A stretch of 64,000 bases of DNA from Nanobdellota archaeon (GCA_021818905.1 JAKASS010000001.1:15648-79647), one strand, 5' to 3'; positions 36,398-58,633 are shown, counted from the first letter of the stretch. Numbers and translations: made by a program. The notes: generated by a model not told the origin, from the letters alone.

Positions 36398-37141
36398 TTG
36401 ATTATAGATAATATTATGCCAGCAAAAATAATAGCCGTTATGAGCCCTAAGGGGGGGGTCGGAAAGACGACCGTGGCCGTAAACCTTGCGGCAGCTTTAG
36501 CGAGCATCGGAAAGCGCGTCCTTATAGTAGACGCCAATCTTGATACTCCGCATGTGGCTATATACTATGGATTTATAGGCTACAAAAACTCGCTTGAGGA
36601 CGTATTAAATGGCAACATCCAGGTGGATGAAGCCGTCTACAAAACAGAAAACCAGAATCTTCACATCTTGCCTTCGAGGGTCTTCAAGAATAAAGGGGAT
36701 GGAAACGCACAGTACAAGATAATAAATCTCTTCCATCATCTCGGCAAAGTGGTAGACGATTATGATTTTTTAATCCTCGACTCAAAGCCGTCTTCTAACT
36801 TGGATTTCATAAAACTTATAAAAAATCCTTCTACGCTAATAGTTTCGATGCCGGAAATAGCTTCGATGATAGAAGCAAAAAAACTCAACGAAGAAAGCGT
36901 GGCTGCGGGAGTAAGGGTGCTCGGGATAGTCTTAAACCGGGTAAATAAAAAGATAAGTGGACACATGAACGACGCTGAAGTAAGCAGGATAGTCGAAGCT
37001 AAAAACATATGGAAGATACCGGAGGATGCAAACGTGTTTGACGCGCTTAGGAAAGGAATACCCATCGTATGGCAAAATCAAAAAAGCCCTGCATCAAGAT
37101 CATTTTTAGAACTTGCAAGAGACATAGCCAGCTGGGGATGA
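36398..37141 (+). CDS. minD: MinD/ParA-family P-loop ATPase
   Basis: Deviant Walker A SPKGGVGKTT, DANL, LDSKP switch regions. The likely start is ATG 36416 (MPAKIIAV). Confidence 0.85.
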   Translation: MIIDNIMPAKIIAVMSPKGGVGKTTVAVNLAAALASIGKRVLIVDANLDTPHVAIYYGFIGYKNSLEDVLNGNIQVDEAVYKTENQNLHILPSRVFKNKGDGNAQYKIINLFHHLGKVVDDYDFLILDSKPSSNLDFIKLIKNPSTLIVSMPEIASMIEAKKLNEESVAAGVRVLGIVLNRVNKKISGHMNDAEVSRIVEAKNIWKIPEDANVFDALRKGIPIVWQNQKSPASRSFLELARDIASWG

Positions 37142-37417: not shown

Positions 37418-37918
37418 ATGGCTAAGGGACAAGGTACGCTCGAACTGCTACTCGGCTACAGCATAGCTTTCATAATAATCGCTGCGACTTTAGCTATACT
37501 CTTCATATTTTACCCGAATATCTTCGCTACCGCGTCGTCTAGCACTTATTCCGGATTCGCTGGCTTGGTAGTGGCGGGACAGGGGTATTGCAACTCTGGG
37601 TGCAATGCCACGGGATTCTATTATATAAGATTCCAGAATCTCCTAAGTGAAAATATAAACGTGACTAGGATAACCTTTTTAAGTCCTGGCATCGATCAGA
37701 ACTTTTCAGATTGTTACAGTTCGATAGAAAATAGGACGGTGATAAAGAATTCAGCCCTGCCTGACCTATACATACCAAACTTAGGCTATGCCGAATGTAA
37801 TTTTACCATGCTATTGTCGTCACCTTATTCTGCCTCGGTCGATATTTATTACGTTCCTTCGAACGATAGTTATTTAATAAGCGAACCGATAGAAATAGCG
37901 GGGTCTGTCAGCGGATAA
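37418..37918 (+). CDS. type IV pilin-like protein (class III signal peptide)
   Basis: MAKG|QGTLELLLGYSIAFIIIAATLAILF, Q+1/E+5. Confidence 0.7.
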   Translation: MAKGQGTLELLLGYSIAFIIIAATLAILFIFYPNIFATASSSTYSGFAGLVVAGQGYCNSGCNATGFYYIRFQNLLSENINVTRITFLSPGIDQNFSDCYSSIENRTVIKNSALPDLYIPNLGYAECNFTMLLSSPYSASVDIYYVPSNDSYLISEPIEIAGSVSG

Positions 37919-37975
37919 TCGCTCTTAATCAAGAATAATAAGATATTTATATCCTAAGATTTATACTTAAACTTT

Positions 37976-38383
37976 ATGGGGTCATTTAAGTACATAAGAG
38001 ACAACGAAAGGCTGATGTTCAAGGATAAAGCTGCAAAAAGAGCTTTGCTTCTTAACGCGGAAAAAGGTTCGATATTAGAAAGAGTCGAAAGACCTACCCG
38101 GCTTACAAGGGCGAAGATGCTCGGTTTCAAAGCTAAGGAAGGATACATAATAGTGCGGGCTAGAGTAGCTAAAGGAAGCTTTAGACGGCCCAGACCAGTT
38201 CATGCACGAAGACCTAGCAAGACTGGCTTATATTTCAACCTTGCTGTTAGCAAGCAAAAAATCGCAGAGAATAGAGCGCAAAAAACCTATAAAAACATGG
38301 ATGTTCTTGGTTCGTACTTTCTAGTTGAAAACGGCCAGTACAAGTGGTTTGAAGTAGTCATGCACGACTGGGCGATTAAATAA
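37976..38383 (+). CDS. rpl15e: 50S ribosomal protein L15e (short form)
   Basis: ERPTRLTRAKMLGFKAKEGYIIVRARV...RRPRP...NGQYKWFEVVM match L15e. Only 135 aa. Confidence 0.85.
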   Translation: MGSFKYIRDNERLMFKDKAAKRALLLNAEKGSILERVERPTRLTRAKMLGFKAKEGYIIVRARVAKGSFRRPRPVHARRPSKTGLYFNLAVSKQKIAENRAQKTYKNMDVLGSYFLVENGQYKWFEVVMHDWAIK

Positions 38384-38445
38384 GCTACATTTTACATTTC
38401 TCTGCTAAAATCAAAACTTAAATTATACGAGAATCAACTATACTC

Positions 38446-38955
38446 ATGACTGGAAACACCGAGGAATTCATATGGTACGAAGTGCTTTTCGCCCTCATAG
38501 TCGCTCTTGTAGTATTCTTCATATTTTACCAGAATTTCTCGGAAGTGTTCCCTATAGGCTGCAATAATAACAACTTAGTAGAAAACCAATTCTCTCAGGC
38601 ATTGTCCGGTACCCCAAATAGAGAGGAAGGCACGCCGCTTTTCAGATGCTACCTTACTAACGCGTGCTATGATCAGGCTACTGCAAATGTGACCTGCATA
38701 ACTAATTGGTGCGCATACGATTATTGCATAGACGGTAAGTGTTCAAGCGCTTTCCAAACCTGTGTACAAAGTCCTACGACGAGCGTGCTTCAAAACTGTA
38801 AAGTGCTTAATCCGTCAAATACCGCGGCCCTAGAAAACTGTGATCAAAGCACGATAATCGCTGACAATTCAACAGATATACAAAATTGTGACACGAGCAT
38901 ACCGACGTGTATAACCGGGGACGGCCCATCATGCTCCTCCTGTGTAGGCCAATAA
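38446..38955 (+). CDS. membrane-anchored Cys-rich extracellular protein
   Basis: N-terminal TM, then 17 Cys (by hand count) in about 130 aa (CYLTNACYDQATANVTCITNWCAYDYCIDGKC...). Confidence 0.6.
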   Translation: MTGNTEEFIWYEVLFALIVALVVFFIFYQNFSEVFPIGCNNNNLVENQFSQALSGTPNREEGTPLFRCYLTNACYDQATANVTCITNWCAYDYCIDGKCSSAFQTCVQSPTTSVLQNCKVLNPSNTAALENCDQSTIIADNSTDIQNCDTSIPTCITGDGPSCSSCVGQ

Positions 38956-38956
38956 T

Positions 38957-39115
38957 ATGGATAAGAAAGGAAGTGTAGAGTGGAGGATAATATGGATGAT
39001 TATAGTGATAGCCACCGCAATAGTCGCGATATTGATAGTATTGATTTTATATTACGCAAGTTCTAGCAGCGGTTCACCATTTACTTACTTTTCTGGATTG
39101 TTTGGTGGCCTTTAA
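38957..39115 (+). CDS. 52-aa KKG-helix mini-pilin-like protein (below ORF-track cutoff)
   Basis: MDKKG|SVEWRIIWMIIVIATAIVAILIVLILYYASSSSGSPFTYFSGLFGGL*. Starts 1 nt after the upstream stop. TAATG overlap with the next gene. Confidence 0.55.
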   Translation: MDKKGSVEWRIIWMIIVIATAIVAILIVLILYYASSSSGSPFTYFSGLFGGL

Positions 39116-40086
39116 TGGTAGAACAAGGCGTACTTCTTGTCCTTGTATCGCTGATTATAATAGTCATAGGCGGCGTCATACTTTTCGTCTTTAGTATCTC
39201 TTTTGCAACATCTATAGGCGCCACTGACTTCGGCGCTAAATGCTATTTCTCTTTCGTAGAATACAACGTCGTAGACTCGTTTTTGTATCCGGTCTCTTTT
39301 ATATCTTCCGCATTGGTAGGCAAGTCTCTAATAAGCGACCCGATCGCGGCTTCGCAGGTACAGGGAGCATGTACTCAAAATTCGAATGTAAATGCGCAGG
39401 ATACGTCCACTCTCGCCGAACAGATTTATACAAAAGCCGCTTCGTGTTTCAATCTTTTTCAGGGGTCTAATGCGGGTGAAGGAGCAGATATTATATATAG
39501 CGGATTAAACCAGTTGTTTGAATGTTACGCCGGTACGATACTTAACAGTGAGACTCCTGGCAGTGTTACGACTTACAATGAGCTTATAAATTATATAAAT
39601 CAAAACTACCCGAACAATGGAAATCCGCTGCAGATAGTATTCATAACCAATGGAACGGACGGCCTCGCAAATTATACGAACCCTAATGCGCCGGTAGCCA
39701 ATGGTTCTACTTATGTGATATATTATTTCGGTTATCCCAGTACTTTTTCCTTTAGCGCTTCCAAAATCACATTGAACGGGGTCTCCGGTACGGACTGCAC
39801 CCTTAACTTTAACACGCAGTGTGATTATGTCTCGCAGTTCAACGAGCCAGATATCGGTTCTGCGATATGCAATATCGATAATCCCACGGTATACAAGAAA
39901 CTAGGTTCCATAGACAATCCCGTGAGTTCGCTAAGCACGCCGAGCACGCTTTCATATGACCCAAAGGACAACGTTATAGGCGCATGTGAGGATTATGTAA
40001 TTGCTTTCTGTGGCAGATTACTTAATACCATGGTATTAAGCCAGAATAGGGTGTTTGTCTGTATAACAAACAGTGCGCTCGGTTGA
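39115..40086 (+). CDS. membrane-anchored Cys/Asn-rich extracellular protein (paralogue of 40122..41618)
   Basis: N-terminal TM. Shared blocks CFNLFQGSNAGEGADIIYSG and C-terminal NRVFVC. Confidence 0.6.
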   Translation: MVEQGVLLVLVSLIIIVIGGVILFVFSISFATSIGATDFGAKCYFSFVEYNVVDSFLYPVSFISSALVGKSLISDPIAASQVQGACTQNSNVNAQDTSTLAEQIYTKAASCFNLFQGSNAGEGADIIYSGLNQLFECYAGTILNSETPGSVTTYNELINYINQNYPNNGNPLQIVFITNGTDGLANYTNPNAPVANGSTYVIYYFGYPSTFSFSASKITLNGVSGTDCTLNFNTQCDYVSQFNEPDIGSAICNIDNPTVYKKLGSIDNPVSSLSTPSTLSYDPKDNVIGACEDYVIAFCGRLLNTMVLSQNRVFVCITNSALG

Positions 40087-40121
40087 ACCATTATTTATAT
40101 TAAAGACAGTTTAAAATCTAT

Positions 40122-41618
40122 ATGGCTGAGACCGGTGGCGAGAATATTGTATTCCTAATACTCTTCGTCATATTCATATTCGTTATAGTACTTGTTTTTG
40201 CCTATTTCCTTCTTTTTGGTTTCGGATTTACTAATGCGACTTCGTGTTACGGCAGCTCCCAAGTCACAAATTTCTTTTATAACGACCTTTGCATAACCAA
40301 GTTCTTCTGCATAGCTACGACGCTAAATGCAATTGGCATTGGGCCGCCATCGATCGGTTGCACGCCCGCTACACAAAGTTATACGTCTAGTTCTACTACA
40401 GGTCAACTTTTTGCGGGTATAACTGACGCGCTTGGAAATTGTTGGTACCAGTATGGGGCTAATTCCGGCTTAGACGTATTGTATAACGGGCCAGGACTTT
40501 GTAGCATTGTCGGAGTTTCGTTTAACAACCAAAAAAACCTTACTTTTTATAATCTTACGCAATATCTTAAAAGCGCTGCATTCTCAAAACAGATAAGCTG
40601 TCTAAATCATACGTCTGTGCAATCGTGCGCCGATCCTCTAACTTCCTTTAATCCTAATGGATTTAGCTGCGATACCGCCTCGCCGAGCGAGTGTGAGGCT
40701 TACTCAACCGATTATTTTTCATGTGAGAGCCAGCAGGGTTATATTCCTACGTACAGCGGATATGTCCTTCGAAACATATTTCTCAATGATTCCACAAAGT
40801 ACAATATAACAACGGCCACTACTGCTGCAAATAATCTTTCTTCGTATCTTTGCGATGTTTCGCAGGGCTGCTACTTTAATAAGGCTACGCTTAGCTGCAC
40901 TAATGATACTGGCCAGTCGAATGGCTGCAGTCAGGTTTTCACCAATTTCTGTGCGGAGACATCGTATGGCTATGACAATTGCACCGCCCAATACGATGCG
41001 AATACGGGCGATTACGAAGCGCCAGTAGGCTGCACCCTTGTAGAGCCTGTAAATAACGACTCGACCGTTAATGTCTCTTATTTTGATTACCTTGCGCCCG
41101 GTGTAAACCTTATATACAACTACAAAAATAAGACCAGCGGTAAAACTGAATCGGTCGGCCCATATTCAAATGTGAGTATAAACGACGCAGAATTATACCT
41201 AGTCTATCTTAATAGCTTTTCAAATAGTGCGCTTCCACCAAACACCATCTCAATGCCACCAGAATGCGTACCGCAGACTTGGCTTAACAATTATCCGACT
41301 TCAGGGATAGAATATCAATGTACCGAAGCATTAGCGGTTTTCGGTTCGGCTACGACTGGTCTGGCTTTATCTGGCGGCCCGAGCATAGTTACTTTGGGTG
41401 GTCTAGCGGCGACTGGATATCTTTATGGCGCATGCCAGAGGAATAACCTTTGCAACCAGTATATAGATACTACCGCTACAAATGCTGCCTGGACGGCGAT
41501 ATACACGACAAGCGGGTTACAGGGGTGTATGGACTCTCTTTATGCCGGCTTACAAGAACTAGGGGGAGCTAACTTTTTAGGGAGGAATCAGATTTACGTA
41601 TGCGCAGTCGCGGCTTAA
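40122..41618 (+). CDS. membrane-anchored Cys/Asn-rich extracellular protein (paralogue of 39115..40086)
   Basis: N-terminal TM, more than 30 Cys, many sequons. Blocks CWYQYGANSGLDVLYNG and C-terminal RNQIYVC. Confidence 0.6.
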   Translation: MAETGGENIVFLILFVIFIFVIVLVFAYFLLFGFGFTNATSCYGSSQVTNFFYNDLCITKFFCIATTLNAIGIGPPSIGCTPATQSYTSSSTTGQLFAGITDALGNCWYQYGANSGLDVLYNGPGLCSIVGVSFNNQKNLTFYNLTQYLKSAAFSKQISCLNHTSVQSCADPLTSFNPNGFSCDTASPSECEAYSTDYFSCESQQGYIPTYSGYVLRNIFLNDSTKYNITTATTAANNLSSYLCDVSQGCYFNKATLSCTNDTGQSNGCSQVFTNFCAETSYGYDNCTAQYDANTGDYEAPVGCTLVEPVNNDSTVNVSYFDYLAPGVNLIYNYKNKTSGKTESVGPYSNVSINDAELYLVYLNSFSNSALPPNTISMPPECVPQTWLNNYPTSGIEYQCTEALAVFGSATTGLALSGGPSIVTLGGLAATGYLYGACQRNNLCNQYIDTTATNAAWTAIYTTSGLQGCMDSLYAGLQELGGANFLGRNQIYVCAVAA

Positions 41619-42064
41619 ACAAAAAGGGCAGTACCTCAGTAGAGAAGGTAGTGGTAATAATAATACTAGTGGCCTTCGTAGTGATAGCTTTCGTAATCTT
41701 AAGCAACGTTTTCCATTTTTCACTTCTTAGCCTTGGCAAAAGCGTGCCAACGCTTACCAGCCAGCCAGCCGATTGCGGCTTGACTATAATCAATCAGTTT
41801 AACACCAGCCAATCATGCATATACACGCTATCCGTATCGGATGGCAGCCCAGGGCTTACTTATACCCTATATAACAACGTAAGCGGCAAAATACAAAGCT
41901 ACGTCGCGGGGGCGAGCACGATAGAATGGAATGCTACGCTGACGAGGGGGCCAACGCAAAGATATTACTTGTATGTTTGCAACACGAGCGGTTCAAATGT
42001 ATCCATAGATGGGTCATTTTATTCTGCGGGCGGATCTGCAGATGTCCTTCTCCCATGCGGATAA
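41600..42064 (+). CDS. prepilin-like protein of the NKKG class
   Basis: MRSRGLNKKG|STSVEKVVVIIILVAFVVIAFVIL (E at +5), beta-rich C-domain. 19-nt overlap with the upstream gene. Confidence 0.55.
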   Translation: MRSRGLNKKGSTSVEKVVVIIILVAFVVIAFVILSNVFHFSLLSLGKSVPTLTSQPADCGLTIINQFNTSQSCIYTLSVSDGSPGLTYTLYNNVSGKIQSYVAGASTIEWNATLTRGPTQRYYLYVCNTSGSNVSIDGSFYSAGGSADVLLPCG

Positions 42065-44212: not shown

Positions 44213-44401
44213 TCAGCTCGTACTATTCAATCCGCCGGTGACCATATGCGCGAAGCCACCGAAAAAGTTCGATATATCCGTCACTATCGTACCCGGCCCC
44301 ACTAGAAGTATGTAAACCACTACTACCGTTATGCCTAACGCTATCGCTATGATATAATAAAGCGTGGCTTCAGTCACTCCCTTCTTATTAAGTCTCAGCA
44401 T
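44213..44401 (-). CDS. 62-aa NKKG-helix mini-pilin-like protein
   Basis: MLRLNKKG|VTEATLYYIIAIALGITVVVVYILLV... Confidence 0.55.
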   Translation of the reverse strand: MLRLNKKGVTEATLYYIIAIALGITVVVVYILLVGPGTIVTDISNFFGGFAHMVTGGLNSTS

Positions 44402-44405
44402 ATCG

Positions 44406-44549
44406 TTATCCGAACGGGTTTGGAATGGGCGGGAATAGTTTTGCCGCCCCTCCGAAGACTATAAGGTAGAATATCACTATGACTATCCCTATTACGATTA
44501 TTATTATAAGGAGAAGCACGTAATCTGTCACGCCTTTTTTATTAAGCAT
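44406..44549 (-). CDS. 47-aa NKKG-helix mini-pilin-like protein (below ORF-track cutoff)
   Basis: Hand translation: MLNKKG|VTDYVLLLIIIIVIGIVIVIFYLIVFGGAAKLFPPIPNPFG*. Confidence 0.5.
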   Translation of the reverse strand: MLNKKGVTDYVLLLIIIIVIGIVIVIFYLIVFGGAAKLFPPIPNPFG

Positions 44550-44712
44550 ATTTACCGCCGTTAATACTTGCAGCAGAGAAAAAAGAACTAAAAAGATTAG
44601 ATATCTTGTACGGAGAAAAGAATTCCAAGAATATTATTACAAGCAAAATCGCTATTATAAGAAGGATTATGTAAAGAAACGTGCTACCTTGTATAGATGC
44701 TTTCTTATCCAT
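44542..44712 (-). CDS. 56-aa KKA-helix mini-pilin-like protein
   Basis: Internal ATG of track ORF 44542..44772: MDKKA|SIQGSTFLYIILLIIAILLVIIFLEFF... The start overlaps the upstream stop (ATGGATAA). Confidence 0.5.
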   Translation of the reverse strand: MDKKASIQGSTFLYIILLIIAILLVIIFLEFFSPYKISNLFSSFFSAASINGGKYA

Positions 44713-44878
44713 TGCCAAAAAGCCAGCTGAAGGAAAGCGCTTTGAATATCGAGTTCCCCAGACTTGCACCACCGCTGCTGAAATAAAGAGCTATGACTAC
44801 TCCGACAAGAAGCACGATTATCGCTATTACTATAGCTATTATTTCTGTTATCGGCATCTCTCCCTTTTTGTTTACCAT
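44705..44878 (-). CDS. 57-aa NKKG-helix mini-pilin-like protein (below ORF-track cutoff)
   Basis: Hand translation: MVNKKG|EMPITEIIAIVIAIIVLLVGVVIALYFSSGGASLGNSIFKALSFSWLFGNG*. Starts 3 nt after the 571-aa ORF stop. Confidence 0.5.
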   Translation of the reverse strand: MVNKKGEMPITEIIAIVIAIIVLLVGVVIALYFSSGGASLGNSIFKALSFSWLFGNG

Positions 44879-44881
44879 GAT

Positions 44882-46597
44882 CTAAAATAAAGGATTGTCA
44901 AAATTCGAAAGCGGACTCAATAATCTTTTCCTTCTCTTGAATTCCTCATAAATCAAGGAAGCGTCTTGGTTTGCTCTGAAAAGGCCTACCGCTATCGCGT
45001 CTTTCGTTCCAAGCCCCTTATACCTCCTGTGGCTTACTTCTATTTCGTATAGATCTGGGTCAAACGCCCTTTTTTCGCCGGTGCCTACTGCAAGTGACAA
45101 TGATTTGTTTATGCCGACGAGATCGTCCTTGAAAGACTGGTATATGTCGAAAAGTGCATAGTTAGAAGCCGGCTTCGCCTTGACATCTTTCTTTTCCGCC
45201 TCGGCTATATATCTATCCAGATCTTTCTTTATCACGTTCAATGAAGATACCGAGACCTGGTCCAGACTCTGAAAAACCGTTTTGTTTACGTATGTTTCTA
45301 GTGCTTTTTTGAAAAGGTACCATTCATCCAGTGTAAAGCAGAAAGGCTTTAATTTTATCCCAAGTGTTCCTGTGTACTGCGTTCTGTCCTGAGGTACCCC
45401 CTTAGGGAAGAACTGCTTCTCTGTAAAACTGAACGAAGTTTCTACCGCTGCTACGACCTTTGGACCGTGCTTCTTTAAACTTGTATACAAAAACGACCTG
45501 TTGCCTTCCCTAGGCCCTTCTGTAAGCAGCTTACCCAAAGGCGTTACTACGGAAGGCAGTTCTGGTCCTTTTACACCAAATGCTCTTTTGTACTCTACCT
45601 CGTACTCACGCCTATACATCGGTTTTGCCGCCATTAATTCTACCGAAAATTCGGCTGTCTCCATTATGTCGGGTCTTTTAGATGCATTAAGGTAGTCATT
45701 AGCGTTTGTAATCCCCTTGAGATTTATCCTGTTAAGTATGCTCAAAGATTCGGCAGCCCAGTTTTTATACATCTCATACGCGGCGGCCTGGCTCTTCAGG
45801 TATTGGAGAAGCATGTCCCTTCTGTTGCTAAGGTCTCCCTTGCTTATCTTTTTCCATTCTTCGTATTCTAAAAATCTGTTCCTAAGTATGTTCTTGTACT
45901 GCTCATTCTTTTGCATGGACTCTATGTCCTTCAGGCTATTGATAGGATAGAATACCGCCACTAGGTCTATAAAGCCGGCACCACCCTGTCCTTGCGTCGG
46001 TGCCCTTGACAATGCACTTAGACTTGCGCCGCCTTTTCTTGCATCAACGTTATCGATAAAAATCCTTTTTAACGCGAGGTCGGCTGCGCGCTTCTTTTGA
46101 GGATCGCTCGATTCTGCCAGTTTATAAAAAGAGTAGTTTCTATCAAGCTCTTTGAGCTCGTAAGTTATCGAGATTATTGATTTTACGACGGTGTTAACGC
46201 TGCCCAAAAGCTGCATTGCTCTATCTTCCAGCGCCTTTCTCTTCTCAAAAGCCATAGTCATAAGGTTAGAAAGCGCGGCTGGATCGACTGATTCCGCGGT
46301 TTTTAATTTGTCATTATACCCAAGCGCCTTTAGCTCCTGATTTATCATTTTGTATTCGGATTGGAACTGGTATGCGCCTTCTACGTCTAGCGAAAGAAAA
46401 AATCCTTCTTGGTTCCCAAGCAGACCTATATCGGGCCGGTTTATCCTCTTAGCGTATCTTAACTCTGACAGCTCCCCTCGGTAGCGACTATTCAAGCCTG
46501 CCGCCCTCAGTTTTAGCTCTTCTATCCAGTTTTTTGCCTCTCTAGGGCTTGATGCGGCTATTATTTTCTGGTATCTCCCGATCTCAGCCAAGTTCAT
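44882..46597 (-). CDS. 571-aa soluble protein of unknown function
   Basis: Long uninterrupted ORF with no TM, no P-loop and no motif I recognise. First gene of a tightly coupled five-gene string. Confidence 0.6.
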   Translation of the reverse strand: MNLAEIGRYQKIIAASSPREAKNWIEELKLRAAGLNSRYRGELSELRYAKRINRPDIGLLGNQEGFFLSLDVEGAYQFQSEYKMINQELKALGYNDKLKTAESVDPAALSNLMTMAFEKRKALEDRAMQLLGSVNTVVKSIISITYELKELDRNYSFYKLAESSDPQKKRAADLALKRIFIDNVDARKGGASLSALSRAPTQGQGGAGFIDLVAVFYPINSLKDIESMQKNEQYKNILRNRFLEYEEWKKISKGDLSNRRDMLLQYLKSQAAAYEMYKNWAAESLSILNRINLKGITNANDYLNASKRPDIMETAEFSVELMAAKPMYRREYEVEYKRAFGVKGPELPSVVTPLGKLLTEGPREGNRSFLYTSLKKHGPKVVAAVETSFSFTEKQFFPKGVPQDRTQYTGTLGIKLKPFCFTLDEWYLFKKALETYVNKTVFQSLDQVSVSSLNVIKKDLDRYIAEAEKKDVKAKPASNYALFDIYQSFKDDLVGINKSLSLAVGTGEKRAFDPDLYEIEVSHRRYKGLGTKDAIAVGLFRANQDASLIYEEFKRRKRLLSPLSNFDNPLF

Positions 46598-46723: not shown

Positions 46724-47812
46724 ATGCATCAGACTGAAAACAATAATCCAATCGAAGCTGCGCTTAACAGACTTTTCTCGACTATAGACGCCCTATCCGC
46801 TAAAATCGACGAATTGAACGAGCGGGTGGATTACATGGGGTCATTCGTAGGTCTAGAAGTAGGCGAGGAAGGAAAAACCGAACACATAGAACCGCCAGGA
46901 CAGCTAGCTGGTTTGTCTTTTGACGTCCTTAATAAACTTCTTCCCGCAAAAGACGCCAACAGCGTAAGGTCCTACTTTTTAAGGGTTTTGAGCCTTTTTA
47001 GAAAATACATAAAAGCTATAATAGTATTCGGTAGTTCCAAGACAAAAACTGGCATGACCAGTACCTCGGATATAGACGTGGCATTCATAGTCGACGATAC
47101 CGACATCCAGAAATTTACATTGGAACAGCTTAAGGACAGACTTTTTACTAAAATGGCAGAGATTGCAAGGGATTTCTCCGATAAAATACACGCACAAGCA
47201 TATCCTCTATCCGAATTTTGGGCATCGATAATAAAACCGAATCCGGTCATTTTAACGCTTCTTAGAGACGGCGTCGCAGTGTATGACACTGGTTATTTCG
47301 TCCCGATACAGATGCTTTACAAGACGGGGAATATAATCCCGACAAAAGAATCGATAGACTCCAACATCGAAAACGCAGAGGGTCTAATAATGCTCGCGGA
47401 AAACGTGCTTACAAACAAACTTTCACTTGACCTTTACAACGCTATCGTAGCTGCTGGACAGGCTTTACTTATGGAGTACGGATACTTACCTCCGGTGCCA
47501 AAGGAAGTTGGAAAAGATCTTCTTGCGATTGCTGTAGAGAAAGAAAAAGTGCTTACAAGAGAGGATGTTGAAAGAGTGGAAGACGTTGTAAAATGGTTCA
47601 AGAAAATAGACCATGGTGAACTTAAGAGCGTAACCGGCGATGAATTCTCGAAAAAGCAAAAAGAGACAAAAGAAGTTGTCGACAAAGTTTTAGGCATAAT
47701 AGAACGGCTAAGGGAAAAGAAAGGGCTGCCAAAGCCGGCTGTAGACAAAGATTTATTAAGACCTACAGATACTAATGTTGATAATAAATACCTGAAGCCC
47801 ACACCACAATAA
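46724..47812 (+). CDS. minimal nucleotidyltransferase-domain protein with coiled-coil N-terminus and HEPN-like C-terminus
   Basis: VFGSSKTKTG...SDIDVAFIVDD (GS...DxD pol-beta-type NTase). All-helical C-terminal half. GGAGGT sits 7 nt upstream of the ATG. Confidence 0.6.
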   Translation: MHQTENNNPIEAALNRLFSTIDALSAKIDELNERVDYMGSFVGLEVGEEGKTEHIEPPGQLAGLSFDVLNKLLPAKDANSVRSYFLRVLSLFRKYIKAIIVFGSSKTKTGMTSTSDIDVAFIVDDTDIQKFTLEQLKDRLFTKMAEIARDFSDKIHAQAYPLSEFWASIIKPNPVILTLLRDGVAVYDTGYFVPIQMLYKTGNIIPTKESIDSNIENAEGLIMLAENVLTNKLSLDLYNAIVAAGQALLMEYGYLPPVPKEVGKDLLAIAVEKEKVLTREDVERVEDVVKWFKKIDHGELKSVTGDEFSKKQKETKEVVDKVLGIIERLREKKGLPKPAVDKDLLRPTDTNVDNKYLKPTPQ

Positions 47813-47815
47813 AAT

Positions 47816-48070
47816 ATGTCTATAAAAATAGTTTCTTTTAGGAGAGGTAGGAAGACGCAAAACCTGCACCAAGCAGTCCTGAGGCTAGACAACGTCAAAA
47901 ATAGAGAAGGGGCGAAAAGCTATATCGGCAAAAAAGTCGAGGTGACTTTCTCAAAGAATTCGATAAAAGGCGTCATAACGCGAGTCCACGGCGACAATGG
48001 CAGGGTGGTCGCAAGGTTTAGAAGGGGCTTGCCTGGGCAGGCGATAACAAAAGAAGTTAAATCACCCTAA
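47816..48070 (+). CDS. rpl35ae: 50S ribosomal protein L35Ae
   Basis: 84 aa. GKKVEV...GVITRVHGDNGRVVARFRRGLPGQAI. Confidence 0.85.
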   Translation: MSIKIVSFRRGRKTQNLHQAVLRLDNVKNREGAKSYIGKKVEVTFSKNSIKGVITRVHGDNGRVVARFRRGLPGQAITKEVKSP

Positions 48071-49104
48071 ATTTTTGTATTCCTCTGCTAATTTCTTGAA
48101 GTCCTGATCGTATCTAAAACCTTTTTCGTTAAGTACCGTTCTCGTACCAAAAGAATCAATCCTTTTCTCCCTCACCGCTAAATACGATGCAAGTTCTGTA
48201 GTGGTGTAATAGGATACGCTGTCCTTTTCCTGCTTAAGCATGCTAAGGTATTTTTTAATTTCTTCGTCCTTAGCCAGGACAAGCATCCTGCTTACAAGGC
48301 CCCTATCAAATAGTCTGTCGAGCCATAATGGCCCTATCTCAATGTTTTTTGATCCGCAGAACGAACATGTCTCAGAAAACTTCATGACCCTGTTAGGACA
48401 CTTAGAACACTGGTAAATGTAACCTATGCTTCTTGTCGTATTCGCCTTCGACACGTGAAGATAAATCCTAACGTAATGGCGCCTAACATCAAAGAACATC
48501 GGTTTAACTGACCTCTCGTAAAGGTTCGCTATCTCTTCTGCGCGTTTTATCAATATCCTTAAACCTATCTCATTGAAATAACTCGTCTTCAGCGACCTCG
48601 CGCCATATTTCAACAAACATGCTTTTTTCGCTTTGCCATAAAGCGCAGCCGTGTCTGTTGCAGTAAGCGCTAGAAGTCCGCCGCGCTTCACTTTTGGCAT
48701 CGCTTGCAGTGCATATCTTATAGGCGAACCAAATGGGTCTATGTCAACGTAGTCATATCCCTCTTGGGCAGAGTAAATGTCCGATGCATTTAATGAAGTA
48801 ACCGTTATCTTAGCTTTGATTTTACTCCTGTTCTTTAATACGTTTTTCTTTATTACCTTACTGGTGTTTAGGTCGTTTATTGCGAACGACTTAAAAGCCT
48901 TGGTTTCGGCAACTAGCCTCAAGCTCCGTATACCACTGCCCCCAAAAAGATCGATTCCTTTAAGATCGTGTGCGCCGAGCGCATTGAAAAGTAAAACGTT
49001 TAGGTCTCTATCAAAATTTCTGGATGGATTAAAAAAACCTCAGAGTCCCTAGTTTGTTTATTCTCAGCGTAAAAATTTATGGCCCCTTCCTGGAATAACT
49101 CCAT
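48062..49104 (-). pseudogene. trm1: tRNA (guanine26-N2)-dimethyltransferase Trm1 with a frameshift in a T7/A7 run
   Basis: MELFQEGAINFYAENKQTRDSEV runs into a stop. The frame shifted by one continues FFNPSRNFDRDLNV...DLFGGSGIRSLRLVAE into ORF 48062..48922 (DIDPFGSPIRY, C-terminal Cys cluster). The run is at 49031..49037. Confidence 0.75.
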
Positions 49105-49111: not shown

Positions 49112-49603
49112 TCACTTATATGGTGCTGATAAACGTTTCAAAGACTCTTCTGTCGTTGGAATGCCGTATAACGCCCTTTCTTCGTCTGTAGTTGCTGGAT
49201 CAATTGGCGTGGCTAACTCAAACTTGCCATCTTTATTTCTGACAAACTGAGTGCCCAACTTTTGAGGCTTGCCATCGTGTACAAATATCCTATCATAAGA
49301 CGCCGCATAAAGCCATCTCACCATTTGTAAATCTTTGTCGCCGTTATCGAGTCTCGCAATGGCATACCTACAAAGTTCATTTGCTGCTATGACGTATTTG
49401 TTTTCTATGTCGTGATGTAGTAGGATTGCTACGTGAAATGCGTCTCGTGGATCTATTAACTCGTTGTCTGTGCACAGCTTCGGGGCTGTGTCTGATATTC
49501 TTTTGCACTCCTGACAGCCCCCTTGAGTCTTTGCCGCCCGGTCCTTCCAGTGGGTGTTGTAAGAGCTTAGAAATGTCTCTAACCTCGAGATCAGGCCCGT
49601 CAT
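49112..49603 (-). CDS. hypothetical protein
   Basis: 163 aa with no confident motif match. Confidence 0.45.
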   Translation of the reverse strand: MTGLISRLETFLSSYNTHWKDRAAKTQGGCQECKRISDTAPKLCTDNELIDPRDAFHVAILLHHDIENKYVIAANELCRYAIARLDNGDKDLQMVRWLYAASYDRIFVHDGKPQKLGTQFVRNKDGKFELATPIDPATTDEERALYGIPTTEESLKRLSAPYK

Positions 49604-50590: not shown

Positions 50591-51714
50591 TATTCGGTTG
50601 CATAACTCATTAATAGAATAGCCGTATCTACAAGGATATGGCTTCTAACAAGCTAAAAAAAGGATCTTTGTGGAGGAGATCCTTCAAACCAGGTGAAAAA
50701 CATGGAAAAGAAGGACTGCCTCCAACGAAGATCTGAGACGGTCATAGCTAAAATAGATTGCGTTTTGCATAAAGAACCGCAAAGACTTACCGTGATGAAT
50801 AAAGGAAAGGAAGGAAGACCATTCCTTTATTCGGACGACCTGATAATGGCGATAAGCTTCTTCAGGTTCTATTTCTGCCCAAAACTAAGGCAGACTGAAG
50901 CCCTGGTTCGGAGGATCTACGGCTACTCTCCCGACCATACCACTATAGACAGAAGGTTATCCACGATAAGACTCGAATGGACGGTCACTAAAAGCGAAAG
51001 GAAAGGCAGGCTCCTTGCTATAGACGCCACGGGGATATCGGTCTCCGATCGCGGAGGATACATGGACGCCAGATACGGTTCAAAGCCGAAGTTCCACAAG
51101 CTGCATGCGGTAGTAGATGTGGAGGACATGATAGTGGTAGCCTTCAGGCTGACTTCCGAACACGTGGCCGACAACAGGAAGTTTCTTCCCGCCATCAGGG
51201 AAGCCGCAAGAAGGGGCGATACCGTCTATGCCGACGGAGCTTATGATGCGAAGGAGAACTTCTCTTTTCTTGAGAAGAGAGGGATAAGGTCTGGGATAAA
51301 GATAAGACAGACCGCCTCTCCCACCGCCCCGGGCTGTCTTCCGAGGAAGAAGGCGGTGATGGAGCAGTTCTCCTTCCTGCCCCATTCCCACTTAGAAAAG
51401 ATACATCCGTTGGCGGAGAAAGGCGTTATGTTCTTCAATGAGACTGAAAGGATGAAATACTGGCAGCAGAAATGGAAGGACAAGGTAGGATACGGGAGAA
51501 GATGGCTCGTCGAATCCTTCTTCTCCGCCTTCAAACGGGTATACGGGAGCCACGCTTCTTCCCGCGTATGGAAGAAGGTGAAGAACGAGATGACCCTGAA
51601 GCTGCTGTTGTATAACGAATTGCTGGAGGCCTGACGCAGACGCGTCGACGGCGCAAAGAAAGGAGGATCGCTATGATGATTTATAAGGTCATCACTGAGT
51701 TATGCAACGGAATA
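50591..51714 (+). mobile_element. 1124-bp IS4/IS5-superfamily insertion sequence
   Basis: 19-bp TIRs TATTCGGTTGCATAACTCA / TGAGTTATGCAACGGAATA (1 mismatch), flanked by ATTTTTGTG on both sides. Confidence 0.85.
50693..51634 (+). CDS. DDE transposase (IS4/IS5 superfamily)
   Basis: IDATG, YADGAYDAKEN, YGRRWLVESFFSAFK (Y-x2-R-x3-E-x6-K). Confidence 0.85.
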   Translation: MKNMEKKDCLQRRSETVIAKIDCVLHKEPQRLTVMNKGKEGRPFLYSDDLIMAISFFRFYFCPKLRQTEALVRRIYGYSPDHTTIDRRLSTIRLEWTVTKSERKGRLLAIDATGISVSDRGGYMDARYGSKPKFHKLHAVVDVEDMIVVAFRLTSEHVADNRKFLPAIREAARRGDTVYADGAYDAKENFSFLEKRGIRSGIKIRQTASPTAPGCLPRKKAVMEQFSFLPHSHLEKIHPLAEKGVMFFNETERMKYWQQKWKDKVGYGRRWLVESFFSAFKRVYGSHASSRVWKKVKNEMTLKLLLYNELLEA

Positions 51715-51723: not shown

Positions 51724-52854
51724 AGGCTGTTGCATAATTCGATTGCAGAAAGCTCAGGATAAGCGATAAATCAGACAAATGCCTCCTGTTTTTTATTGAA
51801 GAAACAAAAAAGGAGGCATTTATGGATAAACAAGCATCGACGGGATTTAAAGACTTAGTACAGAGGAAACTTCAGTCCGTAGTGGACGAACTGAAGAAAG
51901 TAGTCGGAAACGGCGCCATAGGACTCTTAAAGACGGACAAGGGAAAGATAGGAAGGCCGTATAGATATTCTGAGACGGAGATCGTCAATGCAAGCGCTTT
52001 CAAGTCCCTCATGAGACAGGGATCCAGGCAGACGGCAGTCCTGATAAAGGGCCTGGCCGGAAGCTGCGCTTCTTATTCGCAGCTTTGCAGAAGGCTTGCT
52101 TCTGCAGGGATAAAATGGCTCATAAACGGGACTAAGAGAAAGGGAAGGTATCTAGCCATCGACGGCACCGGGATATCTACACACTACCGAGGGGACTACA
52201 GAAGCAGCAAATATGACATAAGACAGCCGTTCTACAAGTTCCATGCGCTGGAGGACGCGGAGACCGGGGAGCCGGTGAACTACAGGCTCACCTCCGATCG
52301 CATAGGCGACAACGGGAAGTTCCTTGCCATTGTCAGGGAAGCCGCAAGAAGGGGCGACATCGTCTACGCCGACGGAGCCTACGATGCGAAGGATAACTTC
52401 TCTTTCCTGGAAAAGAGAGGGATAAGGTCTGGGATAAAGATAAGACAGACCGCTTCTCCCACTGCTCCAGGCTGTCTTCCGAGGAAGAAAGCAGTGATGG
52501 AGCAGTTCAGCCTGCTTCCCCACGGTCATCTTGAGAGGAAGCATCCTCTGGCGGAGAAAGGAAGGATGTTCTTCAGCGAGACGGAAAGGATGAAGTACTG
52601 GCAGCAGAGATGGAAGGATAAGGTAGGATACGGGAGAAGGACTTCCGTGGAGAGGTCCTATTCTACCTTCAAGGCATTGTTCGGAGGATATGCCTCTTCT
52701 AGAAAATGGAAGAGCCTGAGAAAGGAGATGCTTATCAAGTGCCTGACGTACAATAAGCTTCTCGAGATAAGGTAAAGGACCGGATCGGCCACGGCAAAAA
52801 GCATAGGGCGATGGCATGATCTGTAAACGGATCGGGTAATTATGCAACAGCCTC
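51724..52854 (+). mobile_element. about 1.13-kb IS related to 50591..51714
   Basis: TIRs (G)AGGCTGTTGCATAATT / AATTATGCAACAGCCTC. Flanked by ATTTTTGTG (the left boundary is ambiguous by 1 nt). Confidence 0.8.
51822..52775 (+). CDS. DDE transposase, paralogue of 50693..51634
   Basis: IDGTG, YADGAYDAKDN, YGRRTSVERSYSTFK. The central ~60 aa are near-identical to the neighbouring copy while the N-terminal halves are diverged. Confidence 0.85.
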   Translation: MDKQASTGFKDLVQRKLQSVVDELKKVVGNGAIGLLKTDKGKIGRPYRYSETEIVNASAFKSLMRQGSRQTAVLIKGLAGSCASYSQLCRRLASAGIKWLINGTKRKGRYLAIDGTGISTHYRGDYRSSKYDIRQPFYKFHALEDAETGEPVNYRLTSDRIGDNGKFLAIVREAARRGDIVYADGAYDAKDNFSFLEKRGIRSGIKIRQTASPTAPGCLPRKKAVMEQFSLLPHGHLERKHPLAEKGRMFFSETERMKYWQQRWKDKVGYGRRTSVERSYSTFKALFGGYASSRKWKSLRKEMLIKCLTYNKLLEIR

Positions 52855-52870: not shown

Positions 52871-53812
52871 GGCACTGTTACCAAATACGGTTGGTGAATG
52901 TTAATTACATCGGCTGCCATCTTTATTTAAGGTAAAAAATGGAAAACCGATGTAATTATTGTAAAAGCAGCAGTGTGGATTTAAATGGCTTTAGAAAGAC
53001 AAAAAGGAGGGGAAGCATACAGCGATACCGCTGTATGTCCTGCGGTAAGACGTTCGTGGAAAATGTCGGTTTCAGGTGGAAACACCATGCGAAACGCACC
53101 ATGATCGGCAGTATTCACCTCCATCTGATAGGATCGTCGCTTAGGGACGCTGCAAAGTTCCTTTCCGTGTCCGTAAATTCCGTGTCCAGGTGGTTCCTGG
53201 AATACGGAAAGATGATCATAGGATACGTAAAGGACATGAAGCCTTTCAGGGCGGAAAGGCTTCACATGGACGAGATGTCCGTAAAGACGCGTGGGAAGTC
53301 CTTTTACGCATGGGCTTCCATCTGCAGGGAAAGCAGGTTTGCCACGGCTTTTCTCGCTTCCGATAGGACGAAGAAGAACGCCAGACTGCCGATGAAGGAG
53401 TCTCCACCCGCCATGAACATCACCACGGACGGAGCCTTCGGATACGGATCCGTAATAAAAGACTTAAAAGGCTTGTGGTATTACCACGACCACTATCACC
53501 GCTGCGCTTCCTTCGAGGACAAGAAGGACAATGATCCCATGGAAAGACGGGACGATCCCTATCGCGCCGATACTCGCGAGCTTCGCGGCTTCAAGAAGCT
53601 CGCCACTGGAGACTTGTTCGTAAGATTATGGACGTTCTACTATGACTTCATAAGGCCGCATTCTTCCCTCGGCAGGACCCCTGCCGAAGAAGCGGGACTT
53701 GTAAAGTATTACAAAGACGATGATTGGTTCGGACGGTGGGAACGATGGGTCGAGAGAGCTTCGCTCTCTTTTTATTTGGCTTATATATCAACCGTATTTA
53801 GTAACAGCGCCC
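52871..53812 (+). mobile_element. 942-bp IS6-like insertion sequence
   Basis: 23-bp TIRs GGCACTGTTACCAAATACGGTTG / reverse complement GGCGCTGTTACTAAATACGGTTG (2 mismatches). Confidence 0.75.
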
Positions 53813-53820
53813 TTATATAG
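52939..53820 (+). CDS. DDE transposase with N-terminal zinc finger (IS6-like)
   Basis: CNYCKS...CMSCG finger, MDEMSVKTRG, TTDGAFGY, NDPMER...YYDFIRPHSSLGRTPAE. The stop lies just outside the right TIR. Confidence 0.65.
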   Translation: MENRCNYCKSSSVDLNGFRKTKRRGSIQRYRCMSCGKTFVENVGFRWKHHAKRTMIGSIHLHLIGSSLRDAAKFLSVSVNSVSRWFLEYGKMIIGYVKDMKPFRAERLHMDEMSVKTRGKSFYAWASICRESRFATAFLASDRTKKNARLPMKESPPAMNITTDGAFGYGSVIKDLKGLWYYHDHYHRCASFEDKKDNDPMERRDDPYRADTRELRGFKKLATGDLFVRLWTFYYDFIRPHSSLGRTPAEEAGLVKYYKDDDWFGRWERWVERASLSFYLAYISTVFSNSALI

Positions 53821-57934: not shown

Positions 57935-58633
57935 ATGCACATGAATAAAAAGGCGCAATTTATTACTGAATATATAATTGTAATTGGTATCGCACTCAGC
58001 ATAATAGCTGTATTCCTGGTCTATGTACTAGTTTATTATTCTGGCTATTCAAATTCCTCTAACTCTAACCAGATATCGACTATAACAAATTCTATTGTAC
58101 AGGAAGCCAATTATGTATTCTCTGAAGGAGTTGGCTCAAAGACTTCTTTTACACTGGGTTTCCCCGATCTACAGGTAATAAACTCATTTTTCTGTGGAGA
58201 TTATATAAAAGTCACTTCCTCACAATATTCTTCGGTGAGCCGGGCAGACGAGGAGCTTGAAGGACTGCTGCCTCTGAAACAGGGAACTTACGTTATGTAT
58301 GCAAGGTACAACCAGACCGGTATAGTACAGATAGGACTAGATTCGGGTGTTTCTTACATAAATTATACTTATTCGTATGACTCGAGCAAAGACCTTTTAT
58401 TTTACAATCTTACCTTCTTCGATAGCCAGTATCTTATCTCTAGCGGCGTAGCCGGTATAGTCCCTTATAATATAACCGTCTTTTCTGTGAACGGCGTTTA
58501 TCTAAACAGCAGCACCTCATTGAGCGTGGACGATTTTGCATACGGGGAATTGACTCTAAAGCCGACACCGTCAGAAGCTATAATAGATATTTTTGTAAAT
58601 GGTGCCGTTGCGCCCTCCTGCTTTTATCCATAA
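57935..58633 (+). CDS. type IV pilin-like protein (class III signal peptide)
   Basis: MHMNKKA|QFITEYIIVIGIALSIIAVFLVYVLV, Q+1/E+5. Confidence 0.7.
   Translation: MHMNKKAQFITEYIIVIGIALSIIAVFLVYVLVYYSGYSNSSNSNQISTITNSIVQEANYVFSEGVGSKTSFTLGFPDLQVINSFFCGDYIKVTSSQYSSVSRADEELEGLLPLKQGTYVMYARYNQTGIVQIGLDSGVSYINYTYSYDSSKDLLFYNLTFFDSQYLISSGVAGIVPYNITVFSVNGVYLNSSTSLSVDDFAYGELTLKPTPSEAIIDIFVNGAVAPSCFYP

Follow-up and report, generated by a model that had tools for sequence, protein, structure and literature searches.

A Parvarchaeales-specific family of very small genes with pilin-like features beside a gene of a DPANN-wide protein family

In a DPANN archaeon placed among the ARMAN-4/5-like Parvarchaeota, a gene for a 571-aa protein (here BIG) is followed on the minus strand by four very small genes (S1 to S4), and the question raised by this array is whether the large protein and the small ones form one dedicated system or belong to separate modules. 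All positions refer to the window, that is, the whole 64,000-nucleotide stretch that was analysed. The five ORFs of the initial annotation were all present in the ORF listing at the following coordinates, and the N-termini and Gly-rich tails quoted there for S1-S4 were correct.

44882..46597, minus strand: BIG, ORF of 571 aa, basic (pI 9.3), cytoplasmic, without a TM segment
44705..44878, minus strand: S1, ORF of 57 aa
44542..44712, minus strand: S2, ORF of 56 aa
44406..44549, minus strand: S3, ORF of 47 aa
44213..44401, minus strand: S4, ORF of 62 aa

In the window, BIG and S1 are separated by a 3-nt gap, S1/S2 and S2/S3 overlap by 8 nt each, and a 4-nt gap lies between S3 and S4. S2 starts at an internal ATG within a 76-aa GTG ORF, and this ATG start was supported by the ortholog alignment.

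ORFs of this kind might be spurious, either chance ORFs in an AT-rich spacer or remnants of degraded genes. Two of the small ORFs are shorter than gene callers commonly accept, one starts at an ATG inside a longer ORF, and clear Shine-Dalgarno motifs were not seen upstream of S1-S4, where such motifs and promoter motifs are inseparable from the coding constraints of the upstream genes. The comparison with relatives contradicted this reading. The order of S1-S4 was identical in all 31 Parvarchaeum-type (Parvarchaeales) loci, and each position in these 31 loci forms a separate ortholog group with its own motifs. The pairwise dN/dS was 0.01-0.26 across the four genes (0.01-0.13 for S1, 0.01-0.26 for S2, 0.03-0.21 for S3 and 0.03-0.17 for S4) with dS ranging from ~0.5 to saturation, and amino-acid conservation persisted down to ~45% identity of the flanking BIG, where synonymous change was saturated. 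Furthermore, the S genes are predicted by gene callers in public assemblies. The spurious-ORF reading was thus refuted by ortholog alignment and dN/dS and is almost certainly wrong; as judged from these alignments, S1-S4 are real, conserved genes under strong purifying selection.

The N-terminal signature of these genes had also been noted at positions 38957 (52 aa) and 41600 (154 aa), and both occurrences were recovered.

38957-39115, plus strand: s52, 52 aa, fifth member of the S family
41600..42064, plus strand: P154, pilin-like, leader ...NKKG/STSVE with E at +5 (slashes mark the end of the leader); orthologs KG/TSAVEY

When S1-S4 and s52 were compared pairwise by hhalign, the probabilities were 91-97%, including 97% and 96% for S2 with S3 and S4, respectively, and 92-96% for s52 with S1-S3; column-shuffled controls stayed at or below 7.5% and reversed ones scored lower in every case. 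The profile search with S1 retrieved 42 proteins, every one from Parvarchaeota or Rehaiarchaeum. By these profile comparisons, S1-S4 and s52 are one paralogous, Parvarchaeales-specific family. All members follow one plan, in which a basic leader of 3-8 residues runs up to K/R-G/A and gives way to a hydrophobic helix of ~27 residues, with an acidic residue near the helix start except in S2; beyond a Pro/Gly break lies a conserved tail of 12-25 residues that is specific to each paralog. The presumed mature length of S1-S4 is ~41-54 residues. S1 has the leader MVNKKG (orthologs KG/QMPITE), invariant P9 and E12 and the tail motif SFSWLFG. S2 has the leader MDKKA and the conserved break and tail motif FTPYK[IF], with an NxS sequon in the tail of some orthologs. 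S3 has the leader MLNKKG followed by VTDY and the tail motif L[IF]PxxP. In S4, the leader MLRLNKKG is followed by VTEA, the conserved motif VGPxxxxxDISxFFxG and a C-terminal NST sequon.

The initial annotation had likened the N-termini of S1-S4 to the archaeal class III (prepilin) signal, and this architecture, a basic leader up to [KR]-[GA] and then the long hydrophobic helix, was confirmed, with the S4 orthologs of the ARMAN-4/5, L009/L016 and L010/L011 lineages as the exception with respect to the leader. Pilin_N-positive pilins of Woese/Pacearchaeota (MNKKGIS...) begin with the same N-K-K-G leader. When aligned by hhalign with Pilin_N-type N-termini, S3 reached 94.8% with a score of 39.2 (reversed control 1.1% and 13.0; shuffled control 0.4% and 10 or less), and S1 and S4 reached 79% and 80%, respectively, with controls at or below 11%. 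Because the aligned region is short and hydrophobic, this backing is moderate, and the similarity seen at the sequence level falls short of proof of homology. When the window was searched with the pattern M-x(0-8)-[KR][GA] plus 18 uncharged, hydrophobic residues, 7 distinct ORFs matched, against 0 for each of 40 shuffled versions, so the recurrence of the signature exceeds chance; S4 was not caught, solely due to Thr/Tyr in its helix. Textbook class III pilins (KA/QSALEY, RG/QFSIEL, KG/QGTLE and KA/QFITEY) are encoded in the window as well, so that substrates for the processing pathway exist in this genome. The signature was further observed at 29835-29143, 29068-28595 and 57935-58633, which the initial annotation had not listed.

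The surroundings of the S genes comprise a cluster of surface-protein genes (the P-cluster) and two housekeeping genes.

37418..41618, plus strand: remainder of the P-cluster beside P154, acidic, N-terminally anchored surface proteins rich in Cys and NxS/T
37418-37918, plus strand: P166, KG/QGTLE
37976-38383: ribosomal L15e gene, embedded in the P-cluster
38446-38955, plus strand: P169, P-cluster
39115-40086, plus strand: P323, P-cluster
40122-41618, plus strand: P498, P-cluster
43595-42066, minus strand: Hef-type helicase gene (DEAD/ResIII/Helicase_C in orthologs)
44164-43595, minus strand: Gins51-like gene (Pfam Gins51_C/Sld5)

The P-cluster is conserved in 21-28 Parvarchaeales loci. The AF2 model of P154 consists of an N-terminal helix and an Ig-like sandwich, and its best PDB match, a weak one, was 8fk7, a Pyrobaculum type IV pilus (prob 0.99, E 2.3e-3, TM 0.27-0.29). 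S1-S4-GINS-Hef forms one co-directional, invertible block, of which the Gins51-like and Hef genes are housekeeping genes that functionally stand outside the surface module. In the window, only GINS-Hef separates S1-S4 from the P-cluster, and in L013, L031 and L084 (Ca. Rehaiarchaeum) S1-S4 are contiguous with P154, P498, P323 and s52, S1 lying directly downstream of P154 in one co-directional run. In a neighbour-joining tree of Hef rooted on Rehaiarchaeum, both block orientations occurred among the basal lineages, which indicates at least two inversions and sets neither orientation as ancestral.

A basic residue pair before a hydrophobic helix can also be read as a positive-inside signal-anchor. 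S1-S4 would then be resident single-pass membrane proteins, acting as micro-subunits or stabilisers of a complex or as anchors of surface proteins, with K-K-G uncleaved and no filament formed. The strongly conserved tails of the paralogs (SFSWLFG, FTPYK, LIPxxP, DISxFFxG) suggest specific protein contacts and are consistent with such a role. So are the exceptional S4 orthologs, which start with ME[AS][VI]W without an in-frame upstream start, have gained a compensating C-terminal Lys and have lost the NxS/T sequon; a membrane topology determined by charge fits these proteins better than obligatory prepilin processing. Many class III substrates, though not all, typically have a conserved acidic residue at mature position +5. 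Other pilin-like proteins of the window (28595, 29143, P166, P154 and 57941) have E there, and the ortholog alignment showed no acidic residue at this canonical position in S1-S4 or s52, which also favours the membrane-protein reading; S3, S4 and s52 carry an acidic residue at +3 and S1 at +6 (the invariant E12), and S2 has none.

Two further negative results can be counted on the same side. S1-S4, s52 and P154 gave 0 matches (E up to 1) to Pfam PF07790 Pilin_N and PF04021 Class_IIIsignal and to NCBIfam TIGR02537; the textbook pilins of the window fail as well, which makes this result weak and uninformative here, and the Woesearchaeota control L038 alone matched (Pilin_N 1.5e-5, TIGR02537 1.3e-3). 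No ORF in the 64 kb of the window was recognised as a gene for an assembly ATPase (VirB11/PilB-type), a platform protein (TadC/PilC) or a prepilin peptidase, nor were type IV assembly genes found in the ~7.5 kb beyond its low-coordinate end on the matching public contig. Their absence from the neighbourhood does not rule pilins out, since pilin genes often lie apart from them (PMC3875500), and Parvarchaeota MAGs are reported to contain an A24 peptidase, VirB11 and TadC (PMC7779479). Against the membrane-protein reading stand the leader shared with bona fide DPANN Pilin_N pilins, the similarity of S3 to these far above controls, the embedding of the S genes among pilin-like genes, and the uniform helix of ~27 residues, which exceeds the typical TM anchor of 20-22 residues and matches pilin alpha-1. 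We regard uncleaved, resident membrane proteins as possible but unlikely.

The large protein had been described as an orphan, which proved wrong. BIG has 54 close or remote homologs, 265 loci/species matches in GTDB genomes and at least 673 representative clusters, and the family ranges over Parvarchaeota, Woesearchaeota and Pacearchaeota. The statement that it contains neither a TM segment nor a P-loop was correct, as the hydropathy profile showed no segment above KD 1.6 and none of the P-loop families matched. Profile and Foldseek searches, which had been suggested for this protein, matched no known family in Pfam, NCBIfam, PHROGs, PDB or BFVD: there were 0 matches in Pfam and in PHROGs and one sub-threshold match in NCBIfam (15 bits against a cut-off of 253), the best single-sequence match among PDB sequences had E 1.1 and the profile search of PDB returned none. 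Its AF2 model (pLDDT 75) shows long three-helix coiled-coil segments and an alpha/beta domain, for which Foldseek gave a best E of 0.07 (TM 0.11) against PDB and of 9.7e-4, but with TM 0.15, against BFVD, with no fold match of TM > 0.2. Matches to TolC, STAT, EnvC and a phage "internal head protein" were dropped with TM below 0.2. BIG thus belongs to a DPANN-wide family with a predicted new fold, as far as the model can tell. Upstream of it lies a divergently oriented gene:

46724..47812, plus strand: nucleotidyltransferase, 362 aa, Pol-beta-type (Pfam Polbeta/NTP_transf_2)

This gene is present at 33 Parvarchaeales and 14 other loci, and no second neighbour of BIG is shared in this way between Parvarchaeales and Woese/Pacearchaeota; outside Parvarchaeales, BIG is accompanied by the nucleotidyltransferase and a TIM-barrel protein of ~600 aa. 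GINS and Hef downstream had prompted the view of BIG as a diverged protein of replication or repair, which was rejected, as that linkage is restricted to Parvarchaeales and S1-S4 intervene.

Whether BIG and S1-S4 act together was judged from how faithfully they are linked. In one dedicated system, the four peptides would make up a membrane complex or minimal filament, and BIG would serve it from the cytoplasm as a scaffold or as an assembly factor. BIG and S1 lie side by side in the same direction at 29 of the 31 S-bearing loci and also at L085 and L086; in L086, BIG-S1-S4 stay together with neither GINS-Hef nor the P-cluster close by. This adjacency, like the short spacer in the window, favours the dedicated system. 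So do two canonical pilins following the BIG homolog at the distant locus L004, two Pilin_N proteins upstream of the BIG homolog in L080, and the cytoplasmic coiled-coil accessory protein known in one haloarchaeal pilus type (PMC4858521). However, S genes were found downstream of BIG in none of 45 loci outside Parvarchaeales, hundreds of Woese/Pacearchaeota genomes having BIG and no S-like genes downstream of it, and canonical pilins are encoded no more than 6 kb from BIG at ~7 of these 45 loci, a frequency not clearly above a roughly estimated background. Within the group the linkage breaks as well: the S1-S4-GINS-Hef block is inverted away from the 3' end of BIG in L013 and L031, Rehaiarchaeum L084 has P154-S1-S4 without BIG, and Acidifodinimicrobium-type loci have BIG without S genes. 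Moreover, the partner of BIG across phyla is the nucleotidyltransferase. The dedicated pairing proposed in the initial annotation is thus lineage-restricted and breakable, a "large protein plus peptides" system is weakly supported, and a scaffold or assembly role of BIG for the peptides appears distinctly unlikely. A bolder form of the same idea, which we consider highly doubtful, is an unrecognised Parvarchaeales machine in which the four helix-only subunits would make up a minimal filament, embedded in the membrane or extracellular, or else a channel, with the new-fold coiled-coil BIG assembling or gating it from the cytoplasm; such a machine could relate to the pili-like connections between ARMAN and Thermoplasmatales hosts, and in one variant of it the membrane topology of S4 would be flipped in the ARMAN-4/5 clade. 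BIG is probably a neighbour of the S genes rather than their partner, and the BIG-S1 adjacency, found in one of the two block orientations, probably reflects co-transcription in a compact genome and not a shared machine.

These results together suggested, on balance and with some reserve, that S1-S4 and s52 are a Parvarchaeales-specific miniature type IV pilin-like family and that BIG is a separate module. Each S protein of such a pilin-like family would be inserted N-in/C-out, an A24-family prepilin peptidase would remove the leader after Gly, and the packed helices would form the core of either a thin type IV filament or a short pseudopilus. Four distinct paralogs in fixed order suggest a minor-pilin-like complex of defined stoichiometry, for priming or at the tip, not a homopolymeric major pilin, and the larger P proteins (P154, P166, P323, P498) may be the displayed or adhesive subunits. 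BIG would be a separate cytoplasmic coiled-coil protein, partnered with the nucleotidyltransferase and, outside Parvarchaeales, with the TIM-barrel protein.

Parvarchaeota (ARMAN) are uncultured, host-dependent, ultrasmall archaea whose contact with the host has been imaged as pili-like intercellular connections linking ARMAN cells and Thermoplasmatales. The analysis newly defines the S family, the conserved surface-protein cluster around it, and the DPANN-wide BIG family with a conserved neighbourhood. The five-member S family is among the smallest pilin-like genes seen in archaea. If its products are true filament subunits, the lower size limit of archaeal pilins extends toward the bacterial Flp type, which would bear on the archaeal origin proposed for Tad pili; if they are not, they are lineage-specific membrane micro-proteins.

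Bacterial Flp (Tad) pilins (PF04964) are similar to the S proteins in being helix-only, ~45-60 residues long and often encoded in tandem, and they are cleaved after Gly, as the S proteins would be. Close to the presumed mature N-terminus, S3 (D-Y) and s52 (E-W) have an acid-aromatic pair as Flp does, and P154 orthologs have the full G/xxxxEY. Flp leaders are longer than the S leaders and their E-Y is at +5/+6, whereas S1-S4 lack the motif G/xxxxEY; there was no PF04964 match and no tad-like locus in the window. Four-gene minor (pseudo)pilin sets, such as GspH-I-J-K and FimU-PilV-W-X, prime type IV filaments, and ComGD-G is a minor pilin set of the same type (PMC8727766). Like S1-S4, these sets consist of four pilin-like paralogs in fixed tandem order, each with its own ortholog group, beside larger pilin-like proteins, but the globular domains of known minor pilins, 100 to >300 residues long, are essentially lacking in S1-S4. 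For BIG, the sole analogy found is arCOG07564, the accessory protein of the haloarchaeal pilus type (PMC4858521), as both are intracellular coiled-coil proteins encoded beside pilin genes; unlike arCOG07564, BIG mostly occurs without pilin genes and with the nucleotidyltransferase and TIM-barrel protein. No literature description of the S, P or BIG families was found.

Helix-only pilin-like peptides are not without precedent, since short pilins of Flp-like size are known in Methanococcus maripaludis (PMC3875500). The mature major pilin of that archaeon, MMP1685/EpdE, has 62 residues and the minor pilins MMP0528, MMP0903 and MMP1283 have 54-63, sizes typical of Flp pilins, with precursors of 67-76 aa (PMC3875500). 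Like S1-S4, they have a class III signal ending in Gly, are very small, occur as several paralogs per genome, and are encoded away from the ATPase and platform genes (PMC3875500). They differ in carrying Q at +1 and E at +5 (DUF361), where S1-S4 have the acid at +3/+6 or none, and in being proven EppA substrates and pilus components, whereas S1-S4 are pilin-like by prediction; S1-S4 are also smaller, and one paralog, S4, is leaderless in many lineages. Thus, the kind of pilin that S1-S4 resemble is already known, and they stand at the small end of its size range.

The five minus-strand ORFs that form the array were found in the ORF listing of the window at exactly the coordinates assigned to them in the initial annotation:

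46597-44882, minus strand: BIG, 571 aa
44878-44705, minus strand: S1, 57 aa
44712-44542, minus strand: S2, 56 aa, internal ATG of a 76-aa GTG ORF
44549-44406, minus strand: S3, 47 aa
44401-44213, minus strand: S4, 62 aa

From BIG to S4, the first junction is a gap of 3 nt, the next two are overlaps of 8 nt each and the last is a gap of 4 nt. Hydropathy analysis gave one very hydrophobic N-proximal segment in each of S1, S2, S3 and S4. When the window was scanned by regular expression for a short leader with [KR][GA] at its end and an uncharged hydrophobic stretch after it, 7 distinct ORFs were obtained, against none in 40 shuffles. Homologs assign the window to a Parvarchaeota archaeon (DPANN) related to ARMAN-4/5.

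The conservation of the small ORFs was monitored in 79 loci encoding BIG relatives and in several others found by exact-protein look-up. The order S1-S4 was kept in 31 of 31 Parvarchaeum-type loci, where the genes at each S position make up a separate ortholog group with conserved motifs peculiar to it. In the ortholog alignments these were KG-[QE]-MPITE ... SFSWL[FY]G for S1, FTPYK[IF] for S2, FYL..FSP...L[IF]P..P for S3 and YYIIAI.LGI...VGP.....DIS.FF.G for S4, and the internal ATG start of S2 was backed by all the orthologs. The pairwise Nei-Gojobori dN/dS of S1-S4 was 0.01-0.26, with synonymous sites ranging from 0.5 substitutions to saturation. A profile of S1 searched against 5.8 billion proteins returned 42 matches, all annotated as "hypothetical" and all from Parvarchaeota except one from Ca. 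Rehaiarchaeum. As judged from these comparisons, the four small ORFs are genes.

A fifth member of the family is s52, a 52-aa gene at 38957. S1-S4 and s52 resemble one another when their profiles are compared (hhalign probability 91-97%), while column-shuffled controls gave at most 7.5% and reversed controls were lower in every case. The common plan is a leader of 3-8 residues, a hydrophobic helix of ~27 residues, a Pro/Gly break and a tail of 12-25 residues; in Ca. Rehaiarchaeum the leaders are merely MKG or MRG. The N-K-K-G leader matches that of Pilin_N-positive pilins in Woesearchaeota/Pacearchaeota loci (MNKKGISAVV..., NKRGVSGVIV...), and the S3 profile aligned with the N-termini of these pilins at 94.8% probability (reversed control, 1.1%). 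S1-S4 and s52 are five paralogous small proteins under purifying selection with a prepilin-like N-terminus.

Other genes of the window encode textbook class III substrates (the slash marks the predicted cleavage position):

29068-28595, minus strand: 157 aa, MKAKA/QSALEYMMTYGWAILII
29835-29143, minus strand: 230 aa, MRG/QFSIEL
37418, plus strand: P166, KG/QGTLE
57935-58633, plus strand: 232 aa, MHMNKKA/QFITEY

The 157-aa and 230-aa genes lie side by side (28595-29835, minus strand), and members of the 232-aa protein's family (cluster c17) also lie close to TFB in many loci of Parvarchaeales. Neither the 157-aa nor the 230-aa protein matched the Pfam or NCBIfam pilin models, and these models are therefore insensitive in this lineage. 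S1-S4 also failed to match the curated pilin models, which is uninformative because textbook pilins of the same genome were missed too.

P166 belongs to the P-cluster (P166, P169, s52, P323, P498 and P154; 37418-42064, plus strand) of six N-terminally anchored proteins with as many as 24 Cys and 13 NxS/T sequons, the large ones having a pI of ~4.1. A ribosomal protein L15e gene (37976-38383) sits inside this cluster, and directly upstream of the cluster comes a gene for a MinD/ParA-type ATPase (36398-37141). P154 (41600) has E at +5 (KG/TSAVEY in orthologs), and its AF2 model consists of an N-terminal helix and an Ig-like sandwich. The best PDB match of this model, over its full length, was the type IV pilus subunit of Pyrobaculum calidifontis (8fk7; prob 0.99, E 2.3e-3), with a TM of only ~0.28. 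The S genes are embedded among genes for surface proteins that are pilin-like and N-terminally anchored, acidic, and rich in Cys and sequons. The mini-pilin-like reading of the small proteins was borne out by their N-terminus, profile similarity and neighbours, but their acidic residue is at +3, at +6 or absent, and never at +5 in the ortholog alignment. The 64-kb window encodes neither an assembly ATPase nor a platform protein nor an A24 peptidase; A24, VirB11 and TadC have been reported from Parvarchaeota MAGs (PMC7779479).

S4 was compared between the window (44213-44401) and L002, L009-L011 and L015-L037. It is without the NKKG leader in the ARMAN-4/5, L009/L016 and L010/L011 lineages, and this loss coincides perfectly with the appearance of a Lys among the six C-terminal residues (..FKNAY or ..FGKAY). 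The same lineages have lost the C-terminal NxS/T sequon. The pattern looks like charge-determined topology and suggests that membrane topology or processing may have been altered.

BIG is a basic protein (pI 9.3) in which no segment is hydrophobic (the highest Kyte-Doolittle mean over 19 residues is 1.17). The initial annotation called it an orphan, a label that does not hold, as a relative is encoded in 265 GTDB species genomes and a BIG profile searched against 1.84 billion representatives hit 673 clusters at E <=1e-3. About 40 full-length relatives from Parvarchaeota share 44-82% identity with it, and further ones of ~460-525 aa share 20-29%; the genomes with titles are of Parvarchaeota, Woesearchaeota, Pacearchaeota and "Nanoarchaeota". 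BIG had no match in Pfam, NCBIfam, PHROGs or PDB sequences. In its AF2 model (pLDDT 75, pTM 0.63), residues 111-161, 166-191 and 232-290 form long helices and residues 316-421 a beta-rich domain, and a fold search of PDB and BFVD with this model gave nothing with TM >0.2.

All the ORFs of the compared loci were clustered to define recurrent neighbours. Outside Parvarchaeales, those of BIG are:

21 loci: divergent ~129-aa protein that starts with an MGIFGFRKK-type sequence and has a coiled coil at its C-terminus
acidic disordered protein of ~200 aa
23 loci: AP_endonuc_2 (Pfam) TIM-barrel protein of ~600 aa
nucleotidyltransferase of ~280 aa

In Woesearchaeota and Pacearchaeota (L003, L039, L042, L051, L055, L063, L074, L075, L077, L081 and L082) these genes form a conserved cluster of ~129-aa protein, BIG homolog, acidic protein, TIM-barrel protein and nucleotidyltransferase, a predicted DPANN module. 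The nucleotidyltransferase is the sole BIG neighbour common to Parvarchaeales (33 loci) and the others (14 loci); in the window its gene (46724-47812) is divergent from BIG. Provisionally, BIG may act in the cytoplasm as a coiled-coil scaffold, together with the nucleotidyltransferase and the TIM-barrel protein.

Elsewhere in the window, a 420-aa protein (3507-4769, plus strand) whose only Pfam matches are low-level ones of coiled-coil type (ATG17-like, syntaxin-like, BLOC1) is another predicted coiled-coil protein. The gene of the tRNA methyltransferase Trm1 (48062-49104, minus strand; PF02005 in relatives) appears to be in two pieces: the N-terminal part of relatives' Trm1 is matched by a 34-aa ORF (49104-49000), and the main ORF (48922-48062) has 286 aa against 340-395 aa elsewhere. 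A frameshift, a pseudogene or an error of assembly could account for this. Between TFB and Trm1 there is a 163-aa ORF (49112-49603), which is not so in most relatives. Three DDE transposase genes are clustered at 50693-51634, 51822-52775 and 52939-53820, and around 50-54 kb the GC content increases to 0.46-0.50. Another DDE transposase gene lies beside a LAGLIDADG homing-endonuclease-like gene (14650-16401).

The initial annotation had taken BIG and the small peptides as one paired system, and S1 does adjoin BIG in most Parvarchaeales loci. In L086, from one Parvarchaeota lineage, BIG-S1-S4 is retained though the Gins51-like and Hef-type helicase genes (GINS-Hef; 44164-42066, minus strand, in the window) are absent; there (8041-9661) the genes after S4 are instead a Roadblock/LC7 (MglB-like) gene and one for a 402-aa small GTPase of the Arf/Ras family. 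On the other side, none of the 45 non-Parvarchaeales loci has an S-like gene after BIG, and Acidifodinimicrobium-type loci lack S genes, BIG having Hef and other N-terminally anchored proteins beside it. In Parvarchaeales, S1-S4-GINS-Hef acts as a block with BIG on one flank and pilin-like P154 on the other. This block is inverted in L013 and L031, giving the run P498-P154-S1-S2-S3-S4-GINS-Hef with BIG convergent on Hef. The Ca. Rehaiarchaeum locus (L084) carries the co-directional run s52-P323-P498-P154-S1-S2-S3-S4-GINS-Hef with short or overlapping junctions, and BIG is absent from it. Both orientations occur among basal lineages of the Hef tree, which singled out neither as ancestral. On balance, the S genes go with the pilin-like P-cluster in sequence features and in neighbourhood, and BIG's partners are a different, cross-phylum set. 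A machine made of BIG and the S proteins is a possible, minority reading. The observation itself was confirmed, and its original interpretation was supported in part: the mini-pilin-like reading stands, and the claims of an orphan, of a lack of precedent and of a paired system are not upheld.

In the proposed mechanism, the S proteins would be inserted N-in and their leaders would be cleaved after Gly by an A24 peptidase. The 27-residue helices would pack together as the core of a short pseudopilus or of a thin filament of type IV, with the larger P proteins as displayed subunits. Because the four S paralogs are fixed and distinct, a stoichiometric minor-pilin-like complex is suggested rather than a homopolymer. 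Helix-only pilin-like peptides, which had been thought to be without precedent, do have forerunners. In Methanococcus maripaludis the mature major pilin MMP1685 has 62 residues and the minor pilins have 54-63, sizes that the authors called typical of Flp pilins (PMC3875500). The S proteins differ from these in being smaller, in their displaced acidic residue, in having one leaderless paralog and in being predicted from genes; for these reasons they are filed as a variant and not as proven pilin members, with the short M. maripaludis pilins and the bacterial Flp pilins as their closest precedents.
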